A stretch of DNA of 35,482 bases from an uncultured candidate division Zixibacteria bacterium. GTDB taxonomy: Bacteria; Zixibacteria; MSB-5A5; UBA10806. Made by a program: the position numbers and the translations under genes. This document shows positions 4,621 to 35,482 of the stretch, one piece after another (within the stretch, counting starts at the first letter, position 1; every line of letters begins with the position of its first letter). The DNA is taken from NCBI GenBank assembly GCA_963817915.1, contig CAWFQL010000004.1, positions 1 to 35,482 of the forward strand. The letters are read 5' to 3'. Under the pieces are notes generated by a model. That model made no database searches and was not told the origin of the DNA. It saw nothing but the letters and a program-made list of their open reading frames with translations.

Positions 4621-6276
4621 ATGAAATCTATACTAATTCTTTCTATTTCGCTTATGGCTATTACTCCATGCGCTTATTGCCAGGTTGATACGCTGGAGGC
4701 TGTTCTGGCGGGCTCTATCGGCCTACCGGATTCCATTACACAATTATATACTCAAAATATCAACGGAGACAGCCTTAATGAGATAATTTTGTGCACACCG
4801 CATAATGTCTATGTCTACGGTTCCGCCGGAAATCAATTGCTGTGGATCAGCCCCGTGCTTATCAATCCGAGGGATCTGCAATTCGCGGATTTTAATGGCG
4901 ATTCCATTCCAGATTTCGCGGTTCATACCGATACCGCGATAATCATATTTCGTCTGCCGGATACGACCGCCGTTTATTCCGCTCCAATATCCCCGTCGCT
5001 CTTTAAGGTATTTACCACTGGCGATAGCGATGACGATGGCGTGCCGGACCTCCTCTTGGTAAGCCAGGAGCCGTTTGAATTCGGCGACAGGCAGGATACT
5101 GCTTGGATTAGCCTTAAATATGGTCCGGATTTTTCTCGATTTGGGGATAATTGCCTGACACTGACTAATTATGACCGGTATCCCGATCAATGGTCTCATT
5201 ATTATAGCAGGGAAACAGTAAATAAAATATTGCTGGCGAAGATCGGCTCGGGCTTATATGTTCAGCCATTAATATTCCTGAATACAAGCACGGAAAAATT
5301 ATGGCATAACACCTCTCCAGACGAAGGTTATTACACATCCGAGCTTAGCGGGAAATATTATATGCTTGACCCCCTGGAATTTCAACCTCTCGCCATTTTT
5401 TCACGGGGATTTGCAGATACCCTTGGCGTTTACGATACGGGCAATAATCATATTGTTTTTTCCCCATCGAATTATGCCTATATTGATTACGGCTCAATTG
5501 CGGATGGTTCCATAGTCAATAAACGGCTGCTGAAATTCACGACCTGGGGGCTTTGCGATTCAACTGAAATTTTCAACAGTGTCTCCAATCAGATGCTAAC
5601 GTGTAATTGGTTTGCGTGCTTTGGGGAAATGAACTCCACCCTTTCCGGTTCCGAATATTGCTACGGCCACGCTAACACGATATTTCAAAGATCGCTAATT
5701 TATAATTCGCTACTGTGGTCAATCGCCGATCCGGCGGACTCTGTTGAAGTAATAAGCGCCTTAAATTCAAGTAGCATATTTAACTCACCCGAAGTTGTTT
5801 TGAAGTGTATCCAGCCGCAACAGGGCTATTTATTTGTAAATGGCAGAACGGGTTCTGTCGACGCAATCTTGCCGGATCCTTCCTTGATCATCTCGCGGAT
5901 TGGAGATATTAGTGGCGATGGCAACGATGAGATTCTTTCTGCAAATGGAAGTACGTTGAAAATCTATACGCTTTTTTCGGTAACCGGCACCGAAGAAGAC
6001 GTTGTAAATCCCGATCAATTTGCTTTGATCGGCAATTACCCCAATCCCTTCAACTCACAAACAACGATAAAATATAATCTACCACAGAAATCCGATATTG
6101 TTCTTGAAATCTATGATATTCTGGGACGAAAAATAGAGGTAGTAGAAAAAACGGATCAGCCGGCCGGCGCGAATCAAATCGTTTGGGATGCGTCCGACAA
6201 GCCATCGGGGGCTTATTTCTACCGACTGACTGCCGGTAACGAGCAAATAGCCGCGCGGATGGTCTTGCTAAAATAA
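4621..6276 (+). CDS. Secreted FG-GAP-repeat protein with YPNPFN (T9SS-type-A-like) C-terminal domain
   Basis: RBS GGAGG and signal peptide. DFNGDSIPDF, DSDDDGVPDL and DISGDGNDEI motifs. C-terminal NYPNPFNS...IYDILGR...SGAYFYRL...MVLLK. Confidence 0.85.
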   Translation: MKSILILSISLMAITPCAYCQVDTLEAVLAGSIGLPDSITQLYTQNINGDSLNEIILCTPHNVYVYGSAGNQLLWISPVLINPRDLQFADFNGDSIPDFAVHTDTAIIIFRLPDTTAVYSAPISPSLFKVFTTGDSDDDGVPDLLLVSQEPFEFGDRQDTAWISLKYGPDFSRFGDNCLTLTNYDRYPDQWSHYYSRETVNKILLAKIGSGLYVQPLIFLNTSTEKLWHNTSPDEGYYTSELSGKYYMLDPLEFQPLAIFSRGFADTLGVYDTGNNHIVFSPSNYAYIDYGSIADGSIVNKRLLKFTTWGLCDSTEIFNSVSNQMLTCNWFACFGEMNSTLSGSEYCYGHANTIFQRSLIYNSLLWSIADPADSVEVISALNSSSIFNSPEVVLKCIQPQQGYLFVNGRTGSVDAILPDPSLIISRIGDISGDGNDEILSANGSTLKIYTLFSVTGTEEDVVNPDQFALIGNYPNPFNSQTTIKYNLPQKSDIVLEIYDILGRKIEVVEKTDQPAGANQIVWDASDKPSGAYFYRLTAGNEQIAARMVLLK

Positions 6277-6340: not shown

Positions 6341-6700
6341 ATTATATTAATGAAAGCTGGCGGGAGTATCGGATATTTAGGGGTAATGCTGTCTGGAGAT
6401 ATCAATTGTCTAATATATCAAACGATTTTCCCCTAACCGTCACGTTGCCGTAACCCGTTTCATATCAAATCCGTAGGCCTAATGGGTAAGCCGCAATAAG
6501 CAGCCATTACGCATATTTTTCGTATTGTGCGGCTATAAAAGTGAGACTATTATGGCTTCACATTGTTGATAGAGAAATTGTAATCATTCGTCACATGTGG
6601 ATGCCTATCTGAGCATTGCACATGAGATTTTCTTTTGTCGAGACCGTTGTTAAGACAGGACGTTAATCTATCTAACCTATTAACTTAAAGGAGATTTGAG

Positions 6701-7003
6701 ATGGCCGGTTTACATTTCAAGCAGTTCACTCTGCCAGATTGGGCCTGGGAACGGAAACATCGAATTATGTATCTAATCATTGGGCCCGGGGGACCGTTTG
6801 AGAGCGTCAACGTTCGCCCAACCGAGAAATTCGAAAGCCTCGTCATGGGGCACTTGCGCGAGTATATTAATGACGGGAAAATGCCGCCAGCGGATATTTC
6901 GTCATCAATCCTGAACCTGGCTGATGATTTTCTGGCCGGTCGGGAAATGACGTTGCGCGCCGGCGATTACATTGCATTGCAAAATCATATGAGAAAAATG
7001 TAA
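6701..7003 (+). CDS. 100-aa hypothetical protein; candidate substrate or accessory protein of the downstream rSAM
   Basis: Strong RBS AAAGGAG and ATG start; ends 31 bp before the rSAM gene on the same strand. Confidence 0.75.
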   Translation: MAGLHFKQFTLPDWAWERKHRIMYLIIGPGGPFESVNVRPTEKFESLVMGHLREYINDGKMPPADISSSILNLADDFLAGREMTLRAGDYIALQNHMRKM

Positions 7004-7034
7004 TATTACAATAACAAGAAAGCAGGGAGTCGCC

Positions 7035-8082
7035 TTGCCACCGATGAATATAGAAACATTCCCTTTTATAGTTGGGTGGGAGCTGACATTACAATGCAAT
7101 TTAAGGTGTCGGCACTGCGGTTCGGGTGCGGGTAAGCCCAGGTCCCACGAATTAACCCTTGAAGAGTCTTTGTCTCTGTGCGATCAATTTCCCTCGCTGT
7201 TGGTACAAGAGGTTGATTTTACCGGCGGAGAGCCACTCTTGTCGTCACACTGGCGTCAACTGACAGATCGGCTGGTGGCAAACAATATCCGCGTAAAAAT
7301 ATTAACCAACGGCCTAATTCTGGATTATGAAACCATCCTGATGATTAAAGATGCCGGCATAAGCGGTATTGGTTTTAGTATCGACGGGCTGGAAAAAAAC
7401 CATGACACCATACGGGAGAGGGAGGGCCTATTCGGGCAGGCATTGAAGAGGCCTCGAACAACCGCGAAGACCGGTATACCAACGACGGTTATCACAACGG
7501 TCTGTGACCGCAACATCGATGAACTGCCGTCGCTCCTTTTTGTTTTGCACCGAGCGGGAGTAACAAATTGGCAAATACAACCGTTATTTAAAAGCGGTCG
7601 AGCCAGCGAAAATAGCAGTCTTCGAGCTTAAGGAGGTCAACGCTTAAGTCGCCTCGACGAATTTCTAAAAGCATCGGTTTCGGACTACAGAGAAATTCGG
7701 TATCAAAATAGAACCGGCCGACAGCTTCGGTTATTTTTCAGAAAACGAAACCAACAGTGCGCCGTGGAGGGGATGTCCAGCGGGGATACTATCATGCGGA
7801 ATTACCAGCGACGGCAAGGTTAAGGGGTGCTTATCACTGCCCGACAACGTGGTCGAAGGGGACCTTCGCGTTAGAGACCTGTGGGATATTTGGTTCGATC
7901 CAACCTCTTTTTCTTATTCGCGTCATGATATCACAGATACTCTCGGTCCCAATTGTGAGGAGTGCGTTCATGCTATTCAGTGCCGGGGCGGTTGCTCTGC
8001 CATGTCTTATGCTTATACCGGACGGTTTCATAATGACCATTTCTGCATATGGGGATTGGAACACGGCAAGCAAACAAGCTAA
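7035..8082 (+). CDS. Radical SAM/SPASM-domain protein (frameshifted near 7620-7700)
   Basis: WELTLQCNLRCRHCGS (CxxxCxxC), FTGGEPLL, SIDG. After the frame change: WRGCPAGILSCGITSDGKVKGCLSLP...CEECVHAIQCRGGC...HFC (SPASM). Confidence 0.9.
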
Positions 8083-8548
8083 ATAATAATTTACCGGATT
8101 ATTTAATCCCATTCAGCCATTTGATTGGTGGTTTAGCCGCTATTCGGGCGATGTCCGATAGATTACCAAATTGTCAAGGCACTAGACGAGCAATTCGGTT
8201 ATCCATAGAGACATTGATGTCGCGCTTGTTTACATAATGCCGGCGCCGCAGGGATAGCGCCACCTGAACATCAGGCGTAACATATTGATGAATAAAACAC
8301 TATAGCCAAATTTTCCTCGTCTATCGCCTCATCATAACTACGTAGAAAAATATACCCACTTTATTACTATTTTTATAGTATTGACCAAACATAGAGAGAT
8401 GCCGTAGAGAGTATTAGTTAATCAAAAGGGCCCTCGTATTTCGCCGGCGATGATTCTATTTCATCTTTGCTTGAAACCAAAGGGTCAACGATAGAAAATT
8501 AGTGATTGCTTGCCTTATTGAAAATTTTAGCAAGCAAGCATAACTAAT

Positions 8549-9606
8549 TTGTTGGAAATGAATTACAAACATTCTGACGCACGATTAAAAATTATGGAAT
8601 ACCATCTTCGAACACTCGACTGGGAATTGACATCGCAACGTTCGCACACTGCGGTTAGTGCCGAGGCGAACTCCGAAAATCGGAGCGAACTTACTCTCGA
8701 TGAAGCGTTGGCGATCGCCGCTAAATGCTCATCGCTGAGGATTGAAAGAGTTAATCTAATTGGCGATAAACCGCTGTTGTATCAGAATTGGTCTAAGGTA
8801 GCCTTATCGCTTGCCCGGAATAACATCCGCACCGTGCTTACCACCTTCAGTACGATTCCAGAAACCATAAAGGTAGAGGAAATTTGCGATTCCGGCATCT
8901 CTCAAGTCAACTTTAGTCTCGATGGGCTGCCGCCAGCCATGATCATATCCACAAACAGCCGGAGCAGTTTAAGGCTATTTTGCATGATATAGAGAAAATC
9001 ATGGCGACGGATTTGCGTGTCGGCATCTTGACGATGGTCTCCGATAGCAATGTAGCGGATTTGCCTGCCCTGCTCTATGTCATTCACGCCGACCGTGTCA
9101 GCGATTGGAGACTGCAGGCGATGGTGACATCATCACCCTGGTATCATCCCAACGGCACAAGACTTTGCGATGACACCTACCGGCGGATCGCCGGCTATTT
9201 GCGCTCTCATGGGACCTCAGGCCGAAAAGCTGGGCGTGTCTTTGAGGCTGGACGACAACCTTGGCTATTATAGCGACAGCGATATCCGTCGAGAGCCCTG
9301 GAGCGGTTGCCCAGGCGGAAGACGTCGTGCGCCATCACCGGCAGCGGGATGGTCAAGGGGTGCCTCTACCTGCCGGACAATATGATCGAGGGTGACCTGC
9401 GGAAGAGGACACTCGCCGAAATTTGGTACGATCCTATTGCGTTCTCATATAATCGCATGACACGACCCGAAGATATTGGTCCCAATTGCAATGATTGCCA
9501 GGATGCCATGTTATGTGGGGGTGGCTGCTCGGCGATGTCATACAATCTCACCGGAAAACTGCATAACGACCCTTTCTGCTTCCAGGGTTTGGAGCGCAGA
9601 GGATAG
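8549..9606 (+). CDS. Degenerate radical SAM/SPASM paralogue (no CxxxCxxC, GGE changed to GDK; several frameshifts; start may be ATG 8594)
   Basis: Collinear with the previous gene (WELT, ELTL, FSLDG, WRLQ, GCPGG, KGCLYLP, CNDCQDAMLCGGGC, PFC) across ORFs 8549-8992, 8980-9273, 9170-9385 and 9307-9606. Confidence 0.75.
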
Positions 9607-9849: not shown

Positions 9850-11042
9850 ATGAATAGAATAATTCTGTTTGGCTTTTTGACTCTATTTTTATGCTTATTA
9901 ATGGCGATAACCGCTTTTGCCGGCTGGTCTGAGCCGGTGCCGGTTCAAGAACTTAATATGAGCGGTGATGAATTCTCCCCATATCTTTCGGCTAACGGCC
10001 AAATTATGATATTTGATGCCCAGGGCACAGTGACCATGAGCCATTGGAATGGCACTAGTTGGGGGCCAAGGAAATATTTCCTGCACCAATTAACTATGAG
10101 GGCCTGCAACGGCAAGCCGCGATAACTCCCGACCTGCGTTGGATTTACTGGGTTTCATGGAGAGCAGGAGGTTTGGGGATGTGGGATATCTGGCGGGTAA
10201 GTTGGGATGATAGCAGCCATACTTGCGGTCCGGCTGAGTGTCTCGGCCCCAATGTTAACTCGGCAGATATAGAATTTGGCGTTTGCTTTTCCGCTGATGG
10301 GCAACGCATGTATTTTGATACAGATACCCATTATAAAAATGGACAATATAATTATGGTTCAGATGATATCTGGTATGTCGATTGGGATAGCACCCTAAGC
10401 GACTGGGGTGTTCCGTATAATTTAGGACCTCTTATTAATACAACGGATTTAGAAGAATTTCCATACATTTCAGCAGATGGTAATTATCTTTATTTTTCCT
10501 GCCCAGGCGGTCACCATGTGCCAGGTTGGCAAGGTGAATTTGATATATATAGGGCTGTTAAAAATGGAAATACTTGGGAATATGTAGAGAATTTACTGCC
10601 ACCCATTAATTCAGCGACTTGGGATTTGGGAGCTTCAATTTCGCCCAACAACCTAAAATTATATTTCTGTACTCATCGCAACAGGGATCCTAATGCAGAC
10701 TATGAAATTATGGTTTCCACATGGGAGCTGGAGGGGATAGAAGATGATAGTATTGAACAGGAAGATAATACGATAAAACTTGATCTATATCCCAATCCAT
10801 TCAACGAGCAAGTTGGGATTAGGTTAGGGGCATATGGAGAAACGAAAGCCAATATAAAAATTTATGATATTGCCGGGCAGAAGGTGAGGCAGTATGCCAT
10901 AGAACTCAGGGGTGGTGCAGGTATGGCAACATCGGATGGCAAGAATCAGCAAGGCCAAAAAGTGGGAACGGGAAATTATATTGTTAAGATAGAATTTCCT
11001 GATGGGATTGAGATGCGAAGAGTGATAACCTTACTGAAATAG
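9850..11042 (+). CDS. Secreted PD40/TolB-like beta-propeller protein with YPNPFN C-terminal domain (one frameshift near 10065-10075)
   Basis: Signal peptide in 9850-10125. Repeats such as NLGPLINT..EEFPYISADGNYLYF. C-terminal LYPNPFN...IYDIAGQ...ITLLK. Confidence 0.85.
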
Positions 11043-11223: not shown

Positions 11224-11691
11224 ATGTTAATGCCGAAACTTCGTCACATTAAAATTGAAAACGGCGTAGATTTCATCACCACCTGCATAAAGAACAAAGA
11301 AACTATTTTTTCCAATTATGCCAACGCGCGTATTTTATTAGATGCCATATTATTTGGAAGAAAATCAGGATGGTACTATCTCTTTGGCTTTGTAATCATG
11401 CCGGATCATCTGCATATTGCATTGGGGCCGGGAGAAAGAAGGGTGCCGTCGATAATGCAGGGCCTAAAAGGCTTTTCGTCGAAGAAAATAAACGAGTTAC
11501 ATAAAAAGTCCGGACCTGTCTGGCAGCGAGGGTATCGCGATTTTTATATTTATAAACCGGAAACCTGCCTTCAGAAATTGCGATATATTGAGGAGAATCC
11601 TGTAAGGGCGGGGCTCGTCGATATTCCAACAAAACATCCGTTTTCCTCAGCCGGAAGAGAAGAGCTTTTAGATCTTTCCATGTTGTTTTAA
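11224..11691 (+). mobile_element. REP-associated tyrosine transposase (RAYT/TnpA-REP, Y1 HUH family)
   Basis: FITTC, MPDHLH (HUH), WQRGYRD and YIEENPVRAGLV (catalytic Tyr) motifs; flanked by palindromic REPs. Confidence 0.9.
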
Positions 11692-11950: not shown

Positions 11951-13049
11951 ATGATAAAGAAAACGCCGTTTTACGATATCCATCAAAAAGCCGGAGCCAA
12001 GATTGTCGAGTTCGCCGGCTACTGGATGCCGATTCAATACCGTTCAATTACCGAGGAACATAAACGTGTCAGAAAAAGCGTGGGGCTCTTCGATCTCACC
12101 CACATGGGCGAGTTCGCAGTCTCCGGGCCCGGCGCCCAGGAGTTCGTACAGCTGCGCGGTCACCAACGATATCGCCTCGCTGGGACTGGGCCAGGTCATG
12201 TATACCGCCATGTGCTACCCCGATGGCGGTATCGTCGATGATCTCCTGGTCTACAACCTTGGCGATATCCAGTATCTGGTGGTCAACGCCTCCAATATCG
12301 ATAAGGACTTTGCGCACCTGCAGTCGCTGATCAAAACCAGCGATGTCAAACTCGAGAATCATCTCCGACCAGACCGCCCTGCTGGCCATTCAAGGCCCCG
12401 ATGCCGAAAAGGTGATGGCCAAGCTGACCGATTACGATCTCCCCAGTATGCCGTTCTACTGGTCTGCGACCGCCAAGATCGCTGGAGTCGAGATGCTTTT
12501 CTCCCGCACCGGCTATACCGGCGAGGATGGTTTCGAGCTGTATTTCGCGCCCGCAGCATGCCGAGAAGCTCTGGCACGCCGCTGTCGAGGCCGCCCGTGA
12601 GTTCGATTGCGAGCCGATCGGGCTGGGCGCCCGCGATTCCCTGCGCCTCGAGATGAAATATGCCCTTTACGGAAATGATATCGATGCCACTACCAATCCG
12701 CTCGATGCCGGACTTGGCTGGGTAGTAAAACTCGAAAAAGGCGAATTTGTTGGTCAGCGATGCGATTATGAAGGTCAAAGAGGCCGGAATCAAGCGCAAA
12801 AACGTGGCTTTCGAGCTGAACGAGAAGGGTTTCCCTCGTCAGCACTACCCGATAGTCATCGATGGCAAGAAGGCCGGAGAGGTGACATCGGGGACCTTTT
12901 CTCCAATGCTGGAGAAGGGGATCGGAACCGGATATGTTCCGCGGAGTATTCCAAAATTGGAGACGGAAATAGGGATCGATATACAGGGGTAAGGTAATCC
13001 CGGCGAGGTTGTTAAGCCGCCGTTCTATAAGTTCGGCACCCGTCGTTAA
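11951..13049 (+). CDS. gcvT: Glycine cleavage system aminomethyltransferase T (multiple frameshifts)
   Basis: [73 protein letters not shown] and VVKPPFY across frames. Confidence 0.93.
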
Positions 13050-13090
13050 GCCGGGTTATAAATCCCATATAATTTCCGATATTGATAGTG

Positions 13091-13972
13091 ATGAGCAACA
13101 GTGGGAATATCACCGAGGTCATTGCTCTATTTACCCCATCGGAGTTGATAGGGCTGGACCTTCATGGGTCAACATAATCGTTATCGATGTCCTTCGGGGG
13201 TCATCGACTATTATCAATGCCCTCAAGAACGGGGCTAATCGGATAGTCCCAGTCGGCGAGGTTGCCGATGCCAGGGCTATGGCCGATAATTATTCCACCG
13301 GAGAATTTATCCTTTGCGCCGAACGAAACGGCCTCAGAGTCGAGGGTTTCAGCCTGGGAAATTCGCCTATGGAGTATGACCCGGAAATCGTCGCCGGCAA
13401 GGATCTGATTTATTCCTCGACCAATTGCTCCAAGGCTCTTTTAGCATCATATGCCGCCGATCGCGTACTGGTGGGGACATTCAATAATCTCACCGCGGTT
13501 TGGGATTCGCTTATTTTACCGGGACGGATTTTCCTGGTTTGCTCCGGCAAGATGGGGACGATTCGCTCTCGAAGACGCGGTTTGCGCCGGGATGTTTGTC
13601 AATGAATTCCTCAAAGATATCACCTATGAAGTGGCCTTGAACGATGCCGCTAGAACCGCCAAGCTTCTTTTCGATTTCCACCATCGTGATATATTGGCGA
13701 TGTTAAAAGAATCGTCGCATGGCAACTATCTACAGCAGCTGGGGCTATTGCGCGATCTTGAATTTGCCGCCGCTGTTGATACGGTACGTATAGTCCCCGA
13801 GCTATCACTCGATAAGACATACATCTTTGCCACCTATATTCCCAAAACCAAGATCAAGGAAGAACCTGAGCCGCCACAGCCGACCTATATCGAGCCGGTT
13901 TATCGTACTACCGCGATCGCGATCGAGCCGGGCTTGGCCGATGTTAGTTTTATCGAAGATCCGGACATATAG
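13091..13972 (+). CDS. comB: 2-phosphosulfolactate phosphatase family protein (two frameshifts)
   Basis: VIDVLRGSSTI, AERNG..GFSLGNSP, SSTNC and ALEDAVCAG motifs; reconstructed start at ATG 13091. Confidence 0.85.
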
Positions 13973-14780: not shown

Positions 14781-16303
14781 TTACTTTATGCCGTAGAGAG
14801 CGCCGTATTTGTTTTTCAGATAGTTAATCAGCGGTTGATGATCGAGCGGCTTTTCCCGTGACACGCTTGACCAGATCCTCGGCGCGGTAGCGTTGCCCGT
14901 GGCAATGAATATTGCTTCTCAGCCACTTCAGCAATTCCGTGAAATTGCCCGAGGCGATCTGCTGATCGAGATTAGCAATATCCGCTTTCGCCTTGGCGAA
15001 GAACTGCGCCGAATAGAGATTTCCGAGAGTGTAGGTCGGGAAATATCCGATTAGTCCGGCCGCCCAGTGAACATCCTGCAAACATCCTTCGGAGTCATTT
15101 TCCGGCACGATACCGAAATACTTTTTGAATCTCTCGTTCCAGATAGCGGGGACATCGGCAACCTTTAGCTCGCCGTTGACGATGGCGCTCTCGATTTCAA
15201 ATCTCAGCAGAATATGGAGATTATAGGTCGCCTCGTCGGCCTCGACCCTTATAAACGACGGCCTGACATCGTTGACCGCGAAATAAAAATCATCGAGCTT
15301 GACATCGGCCAGCGCCTGCGGGAACGCCGCCTGAGCCTTGGGATAGAAGTGCTGCCAGAATGGACGGCTGCGTCCGATGAGATTTTCCCACATACGCGAT
15401 TGCGATTCATGAATCCCCAGCGATGCAGAATCGCCAGTTGGCAGGCCATAGTTTTCGCCGGGCAATCCCTGCTCATAGATGCCGTGCCCGGCTTCATGCA
15501 GTATGCCGAAAAATGCCTGAGGAAAATGATTGCGATTATAGCGCGTCGTAATTCGTATATCGTGCGGTCCAAGCCCCGTGCAAAACGGATGAGTGGTGAC
15601 ATCGAGACGGCCCGAATCGAAACTGAAGCCTATCGCCTTGGCGGCATCGGCGCCAAACCTGGCCTGAACATCGACAGGATAATCGCGAGTGATAATGGTG
15701 AGGTTCGGTTGTTTTCCGGAATCTTTAATTTTGGCGATAAGATCGACAAGCTCGCCGCGTAAATTAGCGAATACCGCCGTTATGCTCTTAGTTGTAGCGC
15801 CCGGCTCGAAATCATCGAGCATGGCGTCATAAGGAGTTGTGGCATACCCGACCGCCTCTGCCTGACGGATTCTCAGGGCGTATACTTTTTCCATCCAGGG
15901 ACGGAAACTGGCGAAATCCGATTTCTCTCTGGCCTCCTGCCAGGCACCCTGTGACATGACGATAGTCTTGCTCAACTCTTCAACGAGGGATTTCGGGATT
16001 TTGACCTCTTTGTCGTAAATCCGCTTTAGCTCCCGGATGTTGGCCGCATCAGATCGTATCGTCATTGAGCTTGATGCCATCGTTGATAATGCTTTCCAGG
16101 ATTTCGCCGTTACGGGGCGATACGAATTTTTCGTGTGTCATGCCGGCCATTAACGAGGCCTGATTTCCGCGATGTTCGGAGCCGTTGCGCGGCATATAGG
16201 TTCGCTCATCCCAATCGAGGAGTGCGGCGCAGGAACGCAGGGTAGCGATCTCGCGCATGTTGTTGTAGAGCTCATCGAGCAGCTTTTTGGTTTTTTCTAC
16301 CAT
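14781..16303 (-). CDS. Carboxypeptidase M32 (Taq-type); frameshifts near 16065 and 14850
   Basis: LLDWDERTYMP, HPF, HEAGH (HEXXH), HESQS, IRVEADE, QDVHW, GYFPTY; reconstructed C-terminus YLKNKYGALYGIK*. Confidence 0.93.
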
Positions 16304-21086: not shown

Positions 21087-21843
21087 CTGGACAAGACCTC
21101 CTTGGCGAGACTGATGTAATTGGCCGCGCCGGTGCAGAGAATATCATAAAGAACTATCGGCTTACCGAAGCTTGGCGCCTCGGAAAGTCGGACATTACGG
21201 CTGATTACGGTATTGAAATACTTTTTCCGAGAAAAATGTACGGGCCTCGTCAGCTACCTGACGAGAGAGGTTAAGACGGCCATCGTACATGGTTAGGAGC
21301 ACGCCGTGAATATCGAGGCTGGGATTGAGATGCTTTCTGGACCAGCCTTACAGTGTTGAGAAGCTGGCTAAGTCCTTCAAGGGCATAGTATTCGCACTGA
21401 ATGGGGATGATCAGGGAATCGGCGGCCGTAAGAGTGTTGATGGTCAGAAATCCAAGCGATGGCGGGCAATCGATGATGACGAAATCGAATTGATCGCGAA
21501 TCGGTTCGAGGGCATTCTTGAGTCGATGCTCCCGTTCGGATGCTCCCACAAGCTCTATTTCTGCTCCCACAAGGTTAATATTGGACGGTAGAACATGGAG
21601 GAATTTGATCTCAGTCTCTATCATGCCCTGTTCAATGGCGGCGTTACCCAACAAGACTTCATAGGTCGATATACCCACGCTCTCTTGTCGATTCCGACAC
21701 CGGAGGTGCTGTTCCCCTGGGGATCGATATCGATCAGCAAGCGTTTTCTTTTCGGCCACAGCCAGACATGATGCCAGATTGATAGCGGTAGTGGTTTTGC
21801 CGACTCCGCCCTTCTGATTAGCGATCGCAATCACTTTAGACAT
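21083..21843 (-). CDS. parA: Chromosome partitioning ATPase ParA/Soj (several frameshifts)
   Basis: [37 protein letters not shown]; ends LAKEVLSR*. Confidence 0.95.
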
Positions 21844-21884
21844 ATAACCTCAGACCACAAATAGCGTTTATCATATTGCTGAAA

Positions 21885-21913
21885 AGAGTAGTAAAACGAT
21901 ATCGCAAAAGCAA
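21885..21913 (-). promoter_or_regulatory. Putative parAB promoter
   Basis: Minus strand TTGCTT-N17-TACTCT. Confidence 0.45.
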
Positions 21914-21921
21914 GAAAAAAA

Positions 21922-21937
21922 CGTTTCACGTGAAACA
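21922..21937. promoter_or_regulatory. parS: parS site
   Basis: CGTTTCACGTGAAACA, one mismatch to TGTTTCACGTGAAACA. Confidence 0.9.
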
Positions 21938-21954
21938 GAATGATATTTATATGG

Positions 21955-22526
21955 TTATGACGGTGAGTTTTCGAGCACGCTATATTGTCCGCGCTTGACA
22001 AAGAGAATTATCTTCCCCGAAGGTGATAATATTTTGTAAGACATGCGGCATCATCTGCTCACGCTTGGGAAGCGCCCTCACGGTCGCAATATCATAATTG
22101 CGATGCGTTGGGATTAAGATCGCCTCGAGACTCTTTTCTACAATACGATCGTATTCGACAAGGCCAATAGTATCAATGGCTGTTTGAAGAAAGATCGCCT
22201 TTTTATGAATCGATTCGAGAAGCGTAATATAAGCCTCGGGACGGAATATCGCCAGCGGAATGCCGGGGAAGCCGGCGCCGGAACCAATATCGATCATGCG
22301 GCACTTCGATGGAATCATCGCCAGCGGACCAAGGGAATCGAGAAAATGATTTTCAATTATATGATCTCGATCGGAATTGGGAAACGAGATTCATCTTGCT
22401 CGACCAGTCATAAAGGAGATCATAGTACTTTTCTATCTTGGCTTTAATATCAATATCAATTAATGACTCCTGGCCGACTCAGCCCAGGCGTTGATTCTAT
22501 CGATATCCTGCTTAGATAAGTGCCAT
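21955..22526 (-). CDS. rsmG: 16S rRNA m7G527 methyltransferase (multiple frameshifts; ends approximate)
   Basis: WSSKMNLVS..NHFLDSL, DIGSGAGFPGIPLAI, LLES..KK..FL and TVRA motifs; lies between mnmG and parA. Confidence 0.88.
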
Positions 22527-22655
22527 GAAAAAGTAGATATTATATTACTGCGTAATAATTACAAGCAAATTGTTGAGAAAGAGGCGGGTTTTCAACAGCT
22601 TATCAAGAGTTGGCTAATCTAATCCTAATGAATTGGTTTTCTGGTTCCAGAATGA

Positions 22656-22671
22656 TGTTTCACGTGAAACA
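22656..22671. promoter_or_regulatory. parS: parS site (perfect)
   Basis: TGTTTCACGTGAAACA, within the 20-bp palindrome 22654-22673. Confidence 0.95.
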
Positions 22672-22711
22672 TCGCATGGCGATTTCAGGAAAATGTGTTA
22701 CAAGCGGGATG

Positions 22712-22731
22712 TTATCCACAAATTGTCAACA
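22712..22731 (+). promoter_or_regulatory. DnaA box (perfect) plus adjacent degenerate box
   Basis: TTATCCACA at 22712-22720; TTGTCAACA at 22723-22731. Confidence 0.65.
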
Positions 22732-22740
22732 TGGTTATCG

Positions 22741-24608
22741 TCATAATATCCTATTCTCGTCGAAATGAACCATAAGGACCGTAATATCTCCTGGAGTGAC
22801 ACCTGAAATCCGTGATGCCTGGCCTAAAGTCTCAGGTTTGAAATATGATAGTTTCTGAGCCGCTTCCTTTTTCAACCCCTTAAGACCAAGAAAATCAATT
22901 GAGTGCGGTATACGGTAGTCCTCGTACCGACGAAATCTCTCGACGCGCTGATCCTGTCGCGTGATATATCCCTCGTATCGGATATCGTTGATTAGCGCCC
23001 GAAAGACCTTCTCCCCATATTTCGACTCCGATTCGGCGTAAATCGGGTAATCAGCGAGAGCTAAGCTCGGGTTTTTTAACGCTTCATAGGCCGAAATTGT
23101 GCGCCACGACGAAGATATCGCTATCCTTTATCGGAATTTTTATCCTCTGCGCTTTTAATTCCTCGCGAAGCGCACTTCTTGGCGGCCTGGTTTGCCTGAA
23201 AGGTCTTCGTGTATCTCTTTTCTAACTAGTCCGATTCTGATATCCCTTTTCCAGCAGACGCTCCTCGGCGTTGTCGTCTCTAAGTGTGAGACGGTACTCC
23301 GCGCGCGACGTAAACATCCGATACGGCTCCGCTGTTGATTTGGTGACGAGATCATCAAGAAGGACCCCGATATAGGCTTCGGAACGGGATAGCCGGAACG
23401 GCTCCTCGTTTCGTACCTTCATGACAGCGTTGATACCGGCCATAATCCCCTGGGCGGCCGCCTCCTCGTATCCAGATGTCCCGTTGACCTGGCCGGCGAA
23501 GAAAAGATTCGGTACAATTTTCGATTCCATGGTCACGAAAACCTGATGCGGCGGGAAGAAAGTCGTACTCTATAGCGTAGGCCGGACGAACCATACGGGC
23601 CTGTTCGAGTCCGGCAATCGTATGCAGTGCAGCGAGTTGCGCCTCTTCCGGCAGTGATGACGAGAAGCCATTGAGATAATACTCGCTGGTACTGTGTCGT
23701 CCCTCGGGCTCCAGGAAAAGTTGATGGCGTAGTTTATCGGCGAAACGGACAACTTTGTCCTCTATCGATGGGCAATAACGCGGCCCGATTCCCTTGATGA
23801 CACCGGAATACATCGGGGAGAGATGCAGGGAATCGCGGATAATCTGATGCGTCTTCTCGCTGGTATATGTCAGATGACAGACAATTTGATCAAGCGGTCG
23901 AGCGTGATCGGTGCGATTGGAGAAATATGGCGGCGGCGTATCGCCGTATTGGATCTCGCATTTGGAAAAATCAATTGTGGCGCCATCGAGACGGGGCGGC
24001 GTACCGGTCTTGAGCCGTCCGATTGTGATGCCAAGTGCTTGCAATTTTTGTGATAGGCCAACGGCCGGGGCCTCGCCGATTCGCCCTGCTGGCGTTTGCT
24101 TCATGCCTATATGTATCAAACCGTTAAGGAAAGTGCCCGCGGTGATGATAACAGTTTTGGAATTTATTCTTTCGCCGCTTGAGAGAATTATTCCTTGGCA
24201 GATTCCGTTTTCGATAATGAGATCGGTGACTTCGCCCTCGATTATTTCGAGGTCCGCCTGATTTTCACAGGTGGTACGCATGATCTCAGAATAGAGGGCG
24301 CGATCGGTTTGGGCGCGGCGAGACTGCACGGCCGGGCCTTTACTGCGATTAAGAAGACGGAACTGTATGCCGGCCAGATCGGTAGCGTAACCCATCTCGC
24401 CGCCGAGAGCATCGATCTCCATGACGAGCTGGCCCTTGGCCAGGCCGCCGATAGCGGGATTGCAGCTCATTCGTCCGATAGCGTCGCGGCTCATGGTGAC
24501 AAGCGCGGTGCGGCAACCCATGCGGGCGCCGGCTAGCGCGGCCTCGATACCGGCGTGACCGCCGCCGACTACTATTATTTCGAAATCGGTTGTCAAAGTC
24601 ATTTTCAA
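22741..24608 (-). CDS. mnmG: tRNA U34 carboxymethylaminomethyl modification enzyme MnmG/GidA (several frameshifts)
   Basis: [70 protein letters not shown]; ends [13 protein letters not shown]. Confidence 0.96.
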
Positions 24609-34083: not shown

Positions 34084-34806
34084 ATGAAAATAGATAGTAA
34101 GCTTGCAGTATGCCTTATTTTAATGTCGTTTTTGGTCGCGCGTTCCGAGTTTATTCCTAATCAAGAGCCCTATAATATCAATACACCTGAGGCACAATTA
34201 AAAATAAATATTGTTCCACAGCTTAGTACGCCTATTCCTTCGTGGATAAGACAATCGCTTTATGATAAAGTGGCTGGCGATTATTACCGTTCGCCTTTTA
34301 ATGCCCCCAGGAGTGCAATAAATAGTAACGAAAAAGAATTTATTTGGAACTTGCTTTTGAGCAATATTAAAACTGCCTATTATGATAGCGTATTAATAGA
34401 CAATATTGGTATTTATGAGTACAAATTAAGGAACGAAGAATATCCTCGAAGGGATTTTTTCCTCAGATACTCCGAGGCTGACACAATATATGTAATTTCC
34501 GGTTGGTCGGATAAATTTATATCATTTTATCGGGCCGTACCCGGTATTCACAAATACGATCTCAAGGATTTGAATAAGAAATTAATGGAGTTATCGAAAA
34601 TCGATATTGCTATTCCCAAGAATATATTTGAAAATTGCATAAAAAGCAATCCCTACTTCATCGAATATGTAGACCGGGACCGGATGCTGAGGGTTCGGTG
34701 CTATCAGATTTCCGAACAGCGGAAGGGACAGGATAACCCGCTAATTACCGACCCCTACACCCTCATCGAAATCACCCGCTTCCTCGATAAGGAGATGGTG
34801 CCATGA
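34084..34806 (+). CDS. Secreted hypothetical protein
   Basis: RBS GGAGG, ATG 34084, signal-like N-terminus; stop overlaps the next start (ATGA). Confidence 0.7.
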   Translation: MKIDSKLAVCLILMSFLVARSEFIPNQEPYNINTPEAQLKINIVPQLSTPIPSWIRQSLYDKVAGDYYRSPFNAPRSAINSNEKEFIWNLLLSNIKTAYYDSVLIDNIGIYEYKLRNEEYPRRDFFLRYSEADTIYVISGWSDKFISFYRAVPGIHKYDLKDLNKKLMELSKIDIAIPKNIFENCIKSNPYFIEYVDRDRMLRVRCYQISEQRKGQDNPLITDPYTLIEITRFLDKEMVP

Positions 34807-35482
34807 ACTGGCGAATGTTGATTTTTATCCTAATCTTATCGGTTGCAGCCCTGGCCGAAAGATTTGAATATATTTCCAATGTTGATCGTGAAATTCCCGA
34901 TAACGATTCGACCGGCCTTAGGGATACCATATTTGTAGACCAGCATATTCAAATCGAGGATATCAATTTTTATATGGGAATCGGCTCTGAAACTACCGGA
35001 TGGGCAGATGAAATTTCCATCTATGTCAAATCGCCCTGGAACCATACTGTTGGCTTGAATAGCTACGGCGGCGTGCATTTCAACTGGTACAATTTTTGGT
35101 ACGATACCAATAGAGAAGAAGACGGGCCTGGTAGTCTCGATGACTATGTCGGCCTCGATGCTTATGGTCCATGGGAACTTTATTGCTATGATATCTTCGA
35201 GCGTTGGACTCTTCACTGGTACAACTGGCATATCGAGGTAATCGGGAATCCGCTTTCAATCGCGGAGGAGGATAGCGGGCCAATTCCAAGGGAGTTCGCC
35301 TTCAATCGTGCTTACCCCAACCCCTTCAACAGCGAAATCATGTTTAGCTTTGCCTTACCGGAAGCGGCTGAGGTCAAATTCTGGATTTATGATATTCTTG
35401 GGCGTCAAGTGCGGATTATCCCTTGTGGCACTCTCGCCACCGGTTATCACAGCATCACCTGGGATAGCGCAAACGATGCCGG
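34803..35482 (+). CDS. Secreted proprotein-convertase P-domain-like protein with YPNPFN C-terminal domain (runs off the window end)
   Basis: Own translation: MNWRMLIFILILSVAALA..EIPDNDSTG..IEDIN..GSLDDYVGLDAYGPWELYCYD..AYPNPFNS..IYDILGRQV. Absent from the ORF track because it has no stop in the window. Confidence 0.85.
   Translation, partial: MNWRMLIFILILSVAALAERFEYISNVDREIPDNDSTGLRDTIFVDQHIQIEDINFYMGIGSETTGWADEISIYVKSPWNHTVGLNSYGGVHFNWYNFWYDTNREEDGPGSLDDYVGLDAYGPWELYCYDIFERWTLHWYNWHIEVIGNPLSIAEEDSGPIPREFAFNRAYPNPFNSEIMFSFALPEAAEVKFWIYDILGRQVRIIPCGTLATGYHSITWDSANDA

Follow-up and report, generated by a model that had tools for sequence, protein, structure and literature searches.

A 35,482-nucleotide stretch from an uncultured candidate division Zixibacteria bacterium (contig CAWFQL010000004.1, positions 1 to 35,482, here called the window) carries a gene for a protein of 100 amino acids followed directly by a gene for a radical S-adenosylmethionine (rSAM) enzyme with a SPASM domain, rSAM1. 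We favor, at a probability of roughly 55%, the interpretation that these two genes form a self-contained module of substrate and maturase, in which the small protein would be the substrate and the enzyme of ~345 amino acids would modify it inside the cell. The two genes are paired across their family, the enzymes form a clade of their own, and rSAM1 has retained its catalytic residues. An earlier interpretation of the window made from its letters alone (the sequence-only reading) had placed here a small open reading frame (ORF), an rSAM/SPASM gene and a second rSAM gene, and had mentioned frameshifts. All three genes are present in the sequence, and profile mapping found the frameshifts in the assembly.

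The small ORF is conserved beyond what would be expected by chance. Its product has 28 homologues of about 100 amino acids at E <= 0.01 in a word-indexed database. An exhaustive search at E <= 0.001 gave 157 cluster representatives, the domain always being located at the C-terminus. Two listed matches of the exhaustive search, P0284 and P0299, are repeat-protein false positives; P0284 was dropped from the motif counts and P0299 lay outside the range counted. An rSAM/SPASM gene is found immediately downstream and on the same strand in 22 of the 23 loci anchored on the small gene, and the 23rd ends at a contig edge. These downstream enzymes are 45–56% identical to rSAM1 and, save one over-extended call, are encoded by ORFs of 331–408 amino acids. 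The search anchored on the enzyme gave 79 loci, of which 59 scored at least 380 bits on the family profile and were taken as family members and 20 scored at most 371 bits and were taken as relatives. A small gene lies 12–246 nt upstream of the enzyme gene in 57 of the 59 members (in one of the 57 as a 21-bit fragment only), both exceptions being partial enzyme matches, and it accompanies none of the 20 relatives. The co-occurrence of small gene and enzyme, which the sequence-only reading had proposed as a check on the pairing, is thus seen from both sides (22/23 and 57/59 loci). One locus of a Smithella metagenome-assembled genome (L181) encodes an additional intact rSAM/SPASM enzyme of another related clade directly upstream of the small gene (889–1929; 347 amino acids, 320 bits on the family profile, Cys motif present), which results in the layout enzyme, small gene, enzyme.

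Archaeal carriers of the pair include Methanoperedens (L014) and other Methanosarcinales, Methanoregula, Thermoplasmatales, Bathyarchaeota and Nitrososphaerota. Among bacteria, it was found in Kuenenia, Acidobacteriota, Chloroflexota, Myxococcota, Verrucomicrobiota, Spirochaetota, Nitrospirota, several deltaproteobacterial lineages and Chlorobium, the last including the cultured strains Chlorobium ferrooxidans DSM 13031 (L203) and Chlorobium sp. KB01 (L204). In the phylum of the window, the small gene is present in two of 285 sampled genomes, one of which is the window's own, where a profile search of the whole genome found it in a single copy; the other carrier (G140) has an intact pair and no second enzyme copy. 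Such a patchy spread over both domains of life points to horizontal transfer of the pair as a self-contained module.

The rSAM1 product matches the Pfam families Radical_SAM (PF04055, E 8.8e-22, positions 7035–7628) and SPASM (PF13186, E 1e-05, positions 7669–8079). In the family numbering, it retains C18, C22 and C25 of the CxxxCxxC motif and G61, G62 and E63 of the GGE motif, and all catalytic and family-invariant residues are in place (51 of 51 columns). The seven SPASM cysteines (C244, C262, C304, C307, C313, C317 and C334) are invariant in 58 members and are kept in both rSAM1 and rSAM2, the second copy. In the family consensus, the enzyme begins at the radical-SAM core and has no fused recognition domain.

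Members of this enzyme family do not reach the cut-off of any curated NCBIfam model. For four intact members, the top model is TIGR04103 (splicease), with 217–229 bits against a cut-off of 725, and the second-best is TIGR03913 (199–210 bits against 592, precisely 591.75); TIGR04133 gives 161–196 bits against 425 and the AhbD model TIGR04545 gives 162–179 bits against 500. The PqqE and MftC models give intact members 97–115 bits (cut-off 381) and 127–161 bits (cut-off 265), respectively. Enzyme pieces from the window score 128 and 48.7 bits against TIGR04103, of which true members from cyanobacterial genomes score 805–861 bits. The nearest solved relatives by profile are SkfB, PqqE (101.6 bits, second-closest), BlsE, CteB, MoaA and SuiB.

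We constructed a phylogenetic tree of 67 rows, comprising 27 enzymes of the pair family, 16 spliceases and sub-cut-off relatives of these, and enzymes that we refer to as G026-type and AhbD-like. Outgroups were true TIGR04103 members and sub-cut-off relatives from genomes of the cyanobacterial phylum, the G026-type enzymes of the window's class and, taken from the genomes of the carriers themselves, one true AhbD together with 10 AhbD-like enzymes. True TIGR03913 members were not included, as a search of 81 genomes from the window's class gave none above the cut-off. The pair family, with rSAM1 inside it, formed one clade (support of 99 in the Shimodaira–Hasegawa-like approximate likelihood ratio test, SH-aLRT), the spliceases a separate one (100) and the G026-type enzymes a third (100), and a branch with a support of 100 set all three apart from the AhbD-like group. 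The branching order of the three clades was not resolved. Three motifs that the sequence-only reading had described as splicease-like, WE[LI]T..CN..C.HC, W.GC.AG and G.[VI]KGC.S[LI]P, were each present in all 10 true TIGR04103 spliceases, in 23, 26 and 16 of the 27 pair-family rows, and in one, none and none of the 10 AhbD-like enzymes, so the motifs really are common to true spliceases and the pair family. A place within the PlpX clade, to which the sequence-only reading had likened the motifs, was not supported: the pair family stands outside the spliceases, has less than a third of the score that TIGR04103 demands, and comes with small proteins that lack the XYG target motif (0 of 37). On sequence grounds, the enzyme and the spliceases are cousins, and the enzyme belongs neither to the splicease family nor to a cofactor pathway.

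The last point bears on the proposal that rSAM1 is a SPASM enzyme of cofactor biosynthesis, of the AhbC, AhbD or NirJ kind, with the small ORF as an unrelated neighbor. The AhbD and NirJ models do give partial scores, about 126–179 bits, but the enzyme family and the AhbD group are on opposite sides of the fully supported branch, the genomes of carriers encode an AhbD of their own elsewhere (436–581 bits, the true AhbD scoring 581), and enzyme and small gene occur together in nearly every locus (57 of 59). AhbD was found in none of the 81 genomes of the window's class. Identity with AhbC, AhbD or NirJ is refuted by the tree and the coupling as far as sequence analysis goes, and we consider a cofactor enzyme with a chance neighbor extremely improbable. 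Clustering with AhbD- or NirJ-like enzymes, which the sequence-only reading had named as an outcome that would count against it, was not seen in the tree, and its view of the locus as one of protein or peptide modification is supported.

Several further enzymes lie close to the family. The G026-type clade (L006–L008, L131–L138), which is at sister level to the spliceases and the pair family, consists of rSAM/SPASM enzymes present in 22 of the 81 genomes of the window's class; their top NCBIfam model is TIGR03913, with about 245 bits against the cut-off of 592, and in four of the eight loci L131–L138 the gene is preceded by one for an rSAM protein of ~450 amino acids with an N-terminus resembling a recognition domain. 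Two other rSAM/SPASM enzymes of 342–356 amino acids, L157 (G588:C4:4986-5993) and L148 (G638:C137), score 323–329 bits on the pair-family profile and fall outside its clade, one of them weakly in the G026-type clade and the other unplaced; they may represent intermediate lineages.

The small protein has no match in Pfam or NCBIfam, and none of 37 family members matches any Pfam model consistently at E <= 10, including PqqD (PF05402). An AlphaFold2 model built with the family alignment (mean predicted local distance difference test score, pLDDT, of 73) has helices at residues 42–58, 64–78 and 87–99, with pLDDT of 85–96 in these blocks, whereas residues 1–40 are modeled with low confidence and show single-residue strand hints. 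The C-terminal three-helix domain carries RAGDYIALQNHMR near its end. Residues Y55, P62, N72, D76, R86, A87, G88, D89, Y90 and R98 are invariant, and the (near-)invariant residues of the family cluster in MPPADIAPAILNLADD..AGR....RAGDYIA.QN.xR, with the near-invariant tail [RK]xGDY[IVL]..Q.[YHF]x[RK]. Of 148 representatives, 132 have GDY among their last 30 residues, mostly 9–16 residues from the C-terminus, and in most representatives its Tyr is followed by Y, H or F at position +6 and by R or K at position +8. The absence of YG from the 100-amino-acid ORF, observed in the sequence-only reading, is a family trait: YG occurs in none of 37 members and, in the last 62 residues, in two of 148 representatives. 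Cysteine is not conserved, which argues against cross-links of the thioether type.

Searches for remote relatives of the small protein returned little. Foldseek found no match of the model in the PDB at E <= 0.001, and a VIA wide fold search had a best Z of 3.2 and listed no recognition element, a result that says nothing about whether the fold is new. Matches to fragments of replication proteins in a protein atlas fell below the recognition threshold and were disregarded. Comparison of the family profile (alignment A2) by hhalign with the Nif11-type precursors of true splicease loci gave a probability of 0.3%.

Under the substrate interpretation, the enzyme would cleave S-adenosylmethionine (SAM) at the [4Fe-4S] cluster bound by CxxxCxxC, and the resulting 5'-deoxyadenosyl radical would take a hydrogen from a residue in the C-terminal segment [RK]xGDY[IVL]..Q.[YHF]x[RK], with two SPASM clusters handling the electron. 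The protein would acquire a cross-link or an altered backbone and would otherwise remain whole, because no protease or exporter accompanies the pair. The product, a modified protein or a protein-derived cofactor, would be kept within the cell. The candidate substrate is conserved from archaea to bacteria rather than hypervariable and is neither exported nor cleaved, which makes a working intracellular protein or cofactor likelier than a variable antibiotic. The assignment of the small protein as the substrate, of this segment as the target and of the chemistry is a prediction from these patterns. By analogy with the leader helices of binary splicease systems (PMC11414181), the small protein probably carries its own helices for docking to the enzyme. 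New chemistry, or a new motif, acting on the small protein was one of the options of the sequence-only reading and remains a live one.

A bolder version of the substrate interpretation, which we put forward tentatively, is that the pair represents an ancient protein-maturation system alongside the spliceases, in which splicease-related radical chemistry would act at a non-XYG site (G-D-Y-[IVL] or [YHF]-x-[RK]) of a three-helix mini-protein. If so, a protein carrying a ketoamide in its backbone, a cross-link or a protein-derived cofactor would be at work inside the cells of anaerobes as diverse as Methanoperedens, Bathyarchaeota, Chlorobium and Kuenenia.

A more literal splicease variant can also be envisaged, in which a tyramine equivalent is excised at the invariant Tyr of G-D-Y-[IVL], with a loss of 135 Da, leaving an α-keto-β-amino residue in the small protein. 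TIGR04103 being the best-scoring curated model, the motifs W.GC.AG and G.[VI]KGC.S[LI]P shared with all true spliceases examined and absent from the AhbD-like enzymes, the grouping with spliceases in the tree and the fixed motif around an invariant Tyr all fit this scheme, and binary splicease systems consisting of a precursor and an enzyme exist (PMC11414181). However, the pair family is not nested within the spliceases, its scores fall far short of their cut-off, and the small proteins have a bulky I, V or L after the Tyr in place of the Gly of YG. The normal splicease target is YG, and a DYG site in RcsA was left unmodified (PMC11626197). We regard tyramine excision in the small protein as doubtful.

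The neighborhood of the pair was surveyed in Pfam for 140 ORFs from 22 loci. No shared protease, exporter, recognition protein or other partner was found, the neighbors being varied housekeeping genes. A hidden short precursor was sought among 838 short ORFs in flanks of ±800 nt, and no cluster extended across more than three loci; the clusters that did form were overlap artifacts in close relatives. In the window itself, no protease or exporter is adjacent to the locus, as the sequence-only reading had remarked, and its neighbors encode proteins with type IX secretion tails.

Four loci from different phyla have additional genes next to the pair, namely those for a B12-binding rSAM protein and a protein with EPAH repeats (L014:7437-9997, L017:3099-5780, L028:3275-5844 and L029:3275-5847), in varying gene order. 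The B12-binding rSAM proteins have 585–594 amino acids and are 62–64% identical to one another. The EPAH protein, of 230–270 amino acids with up to seven (E/W)EPAH(F/W/L) repeats, looks like a multi-core substrate protein. No EPAH protein was detectable in the window's genome with the query used, and the B12-binding rSAM protein of that genome is located elsewhere and is only 26% identical.

Fusions of the small domain were also observed. It forms the C-terminus of a ~400-amino-acid ORF at L019:2100-3302 and of ORFs in P0155 and P0164, the N-terminal parts of which contain an HEMGH metallopeptidase motif and which we take to be M64-like peptidases; these may be natural fusions of a peptidase and the small domain. 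Several other relatives (P0020, P0154, P0159 and P0265) have an N-terminal extension similar to redoxin/TlpA before the small domain, which may reflect either a genuine fusion or reading through from a thiol-disulfide oxidoreductase gene upstream.

The most serious alternative to a substrate role, which we nevertheless hold to be rather unlikely, casts the small protein as an accessory subunit that the enzyme cannot do without, an activator or recognition protein like PlpY or PqqD. The substrate would then come from a gene located elsewhere or be some common molecule of the cell. Related spliceases have small activators in the Y proteins (PMC11414181), the enzyme lacks a built-in recognition domain, and the small protein combines weak strand hints with a folded three-helix domain. 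This evidence has to be set beside four features of the family that speak against a substrate role. The whole C-terminal 60 residues are conserved in the manner of a folded domain, a pattern that would suit a partner protein as well; the candidate site opens a helix in a confidently modeled bundle and is not obviously an accessible substrate segment; the small domain follows an M64-like peptidase in some relatives, an arrangement commoner for recognition domains than for precursors; and in four of the 23 loci anchored on the small gene the pair is accompanied by the B12-binding rSAM protein and the EPAH-repeat protein, which could be the real substrate there. A further point, specific to the window, is that rSAM1 is interrupted by frame breaks, which may be real.

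Against an accessory role, comparison of the family with 10 true Y proteins by hhalign (alignment A2) gave a probability of 0.2% and an E-value of 0.28, so the PlpY-like partner offered in the sequence-only reading as the other option finds no support at the profile level. No consistent match to PqqD or to any other Pfam family was seen in the 37 members, and the fold searches found no recognition element, which is weak evidence. The winged-helix fold of a PlpY- or PqqD-type element has three strands followed by three helices; the AlphaFold2 model shows three confident helices and, in the low-confidence region before them, single-residue strand hints. Y genes lie downstream of spliceases, whereas the small gene is always upstream of its enzyme. 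In most loci, neither a second gene nor a short ORF is conserved beside the pair, and the EPAH protein, which might be the substrate in the four extended loci, was not found in the window's genome with the query used. We therefore retain the substrate interpretation as the best explanation of the pair.

Whether the pair functions in this particular genome depends on the frame breaks in rSAM1. Mapped onto the profile of 58 intact homologues (alignment A3), positions 7044–7625 correspond to profile positions 1–194 (294 bits) and positions 7684–8073, in another frame, to profile positions 213–342 (209 bits). The linker of ~18 residues (profile positions ~195–212) is scrambled, with stops in both frames, at 7629–7631 in one and at 7645–7647 and 7666–7668 in the other. 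At least two small indels, and probably three, are needed to explain this zone. rSAM2 gave four pieces against the same profile, 8615–8929 (60 bits), 8932–9234 (50 bits), 9209–9325 (24 bits) and 9319–9600 (133 bits), and can be read only with three frame changes. Housekeeping genes of the window are broken in the same way, with gcvT in four pieces and comB and mnmG in two each, and parA, rsmG and an M32 peptidase gene are truncated. The assembly is indel-rich, and the frameshifts alone therefore do not make rSAM1 a pseudogene. The broken housekeeping genes lie at 11951–13972, 21274–24608 and 14827–16080, and indels seem denser in the G+C-richer stretches. The MnmG of the window gave no taxonomic signal, being 51–62% identical to homologues from many phyla.

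The alternative is that the locus is dead in this genome, the breaks in rSAM1 being real and both enzyme genes being pseudogenes of a horizontally acquired cassette. The need for at least two frame changes within 70 nt, the clear degeneration of rSAM2 and the rarity of the cassette in the lineage, which fits a recent arrival that would need no maintenance, are compatible with this possibility. On the other hand, outside the 70-nt zone rSAM1 is free of stops, it retains every family-invariant residue and 56–60% identity to intact homologues, the small gene is intact, and the neighboring housekeeping genes are damaged alike. We put the odds for assembly error as the cause of the rSAM1 breaks at about 70:30 and consider a dead locus unlikely.

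The second rSAM gene, which the sequence-only reading had described as a paralogue, is indeed homologous to rSAM1 but degenerate, with the cysteines of the radical-SAM cluster lost. Pfam recognizes Radical_SAM (PF04055, E 9.6e-08) and SPASM (E 4.2e-06) in it, and it keeps 32 of the 51 invariant columns. In the active site, C18 is replaced by R, C22 is deleted, C25 is replaced by T and GGE is changed to GDK; C46 and N89 are gone as well. In the other reading frames, nothing more than an HCG remnant can be recovered, and the motif region is short by ~10 nt, so the loss of the motif is not an artifact of single indels. The closest relative of rSAM2 is rSAM1 (39% identity), and the two are sisters in the 67-row tree (support 92). 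In a smaller tree, the branch of rSAM2 has a length of 3.07 against a median of 0.47, about six-fold. The version of that tree that joins the two is 26.6 log-likelihood units better than the free-search tree and is not rejected by the approximately unbiased test (p 0.75). None of the other 58 loci of the enzyme family has a second family-like copy within 2.5 kb, no relative of the N-terminal half of rSAM2 was found among 409 candidates (weak evidence), and rSAM2 has no small gene of its own. On these data, rSAM2 is a lineage-specific tandem duplicate, predicted to be unable to cleave SAM. It is most likely decaying, and it may serve as a SPASM-only scaffold.

The features of the locus are collected in Table 1. 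The gap between the small gene and rSAM1, on the same strand, is 32–41 nt, and rSAM1 starts at ATG 7044 or at TTG 7035. The spacer between the two enzyme genes has no match to the small-protein profile (A2) at E <= 1 and no match in Rfam at E <= 0.1.

Table 1. Features of the small-gene/rSAM locus in the window
Feature	Position	Strand	Basis or remark
Shine-Dalgarno-like AAGGAG	6688..6693	+	Read from the sequence; 7 nt 5' of the small-gene ATG
Small protein gene	6701..7003	+	Intact 100-amino-acid ORF
rSAM1, radical-SAM/SPASM enzyme of the pair family	7044..8082	+	Profile mapping, Pfam, tree
rSAM1 frame-break zone	7620..7690	+	Three-frame translation, tblastn with intact homologues, hidden Markov model (HMM) mapping
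Spacer of ~500 nt between rSAM1 and rSAM2	8083..8584	.	No second small gene, no Rfam RNA
rSAM2, degenerate tandem duplicate of rSAM1	8585..9606	+	HMM pieces
Hairpin, perfect 9-bp stem, 6-nt loop	9718..9741	.	112 nt 3' of the rSAM2 stop

The hairpin downstream of rSAM2 occurs once in the window and once in the 3.33-Mb genome, which rules out a member of a repeat family. It possibly marks the end of the transcript; the terminator scan missed it because it has no T-run. In the promoter and terminator scan of the window, the counts were those of shuffled sequence. The genes flanking the cassette (4621–6276 and 10059–11042), like another at 34803–35480, code for secreted proteins with C-terminal sorting domains of the type IX secretion system (Por_Secre_tail/FlgD_ig) and with FG-GAP and PD40 repeats, and are unrelated to the cassette. 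A protein with an IS200-like Y1 transposase domain is encoded ~1.6 kb downstream of the locus (11224–11691; PF01797, E 1e-07) and possibly relates to mobility of the region.

Our literature search found no description of the pair, although a 2022 survey of splicease types, cited in PMC11414181, might list the clade; the pair is probably an undescribed protein-modification system. Its enzymes form a clade as distinct as the spliceases themselves, they are strictly linked with a protein that belongs to no known family, and the module is compact, appears to be ancient and is found in archaea and bacteria alike. Maturases of the radical-SAM/SPASM type have been a recurrent source of new peptide chemistry, including thioethers, cyclophanes, tyramine splicing, PQQ and mycofactocin. 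If the substrate interpretation is correct, the pair would add a new case to those in which ribosomally made proteins are chemically rewired, and splicease-like chemistry on a new motif would widen the protein-engineering toolbox that has been built on spliceases. The presence of the two-gene pair in cultured Chlorobium strains makes the hypothesis directly testable.

Among known systems, the spliceases PlpX, PcpX and RhaX (TIGR04103, nif11-class peptide radical SAM maturase 3) are the most similar to the pair enzyme, with which they share a super-clade, the three motifs, an rSAM core free of a fused recognition domain and a precursor gene located upstream. They differ in the length of their ORFs, 417–433 amino acids as opposed to about 345, and true splicease loci encode Nif11-type precursors with LYGV cores upstream and a Y protein of 59–78 amino acids downstream. 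Unlike the spliceotide precursors, the small protein of the pair has no XYG, is not Nif11-like, lacks a GG cleavage site and a variable core, and is conserved across bacteria and archaea. TIGR03913, the GDL motif peptide-associated radical SAM/SPASM maturase, is likewise an rSAM/SPASM enzyme associated with a peptide, and its name recalls the G-D-[YF] motif of the small protein, but the pair enzyme stays below its cut-off and the small protein matches no NCBIfam model; a literature search found no paper describing the GDL system. For rSAM2, the GeoRSP (TIGR04304) and haloarchaeal (TIGR04347) pseudo-SAM/SPASM paralogues offer a parallel, as they too keep SPASM and have no working radical-SAM site, and they stand beside a true rSAM enzyme or are related to one, although rSAM2 is a one-off and its scores on these models are marginal.

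The pathways of PQQ (PqqA, PqqD and PqqE) and mycofactocin (MftA, MftB and MftC) provide another comparison. Precursors of the PqqA and MftA type have about 20–30 amino acids and require a separate recognition protein, PqqD or MftB, whereas the pair has a single protein of 100 amino acids that bears no PqqD signature. Like the module that we propose, these pathways combine an rSAM/SPASM enzyme with a highly conserved precursor, a ribosomal product in which a Tyr is conserved, and what they make is used inside the cell.

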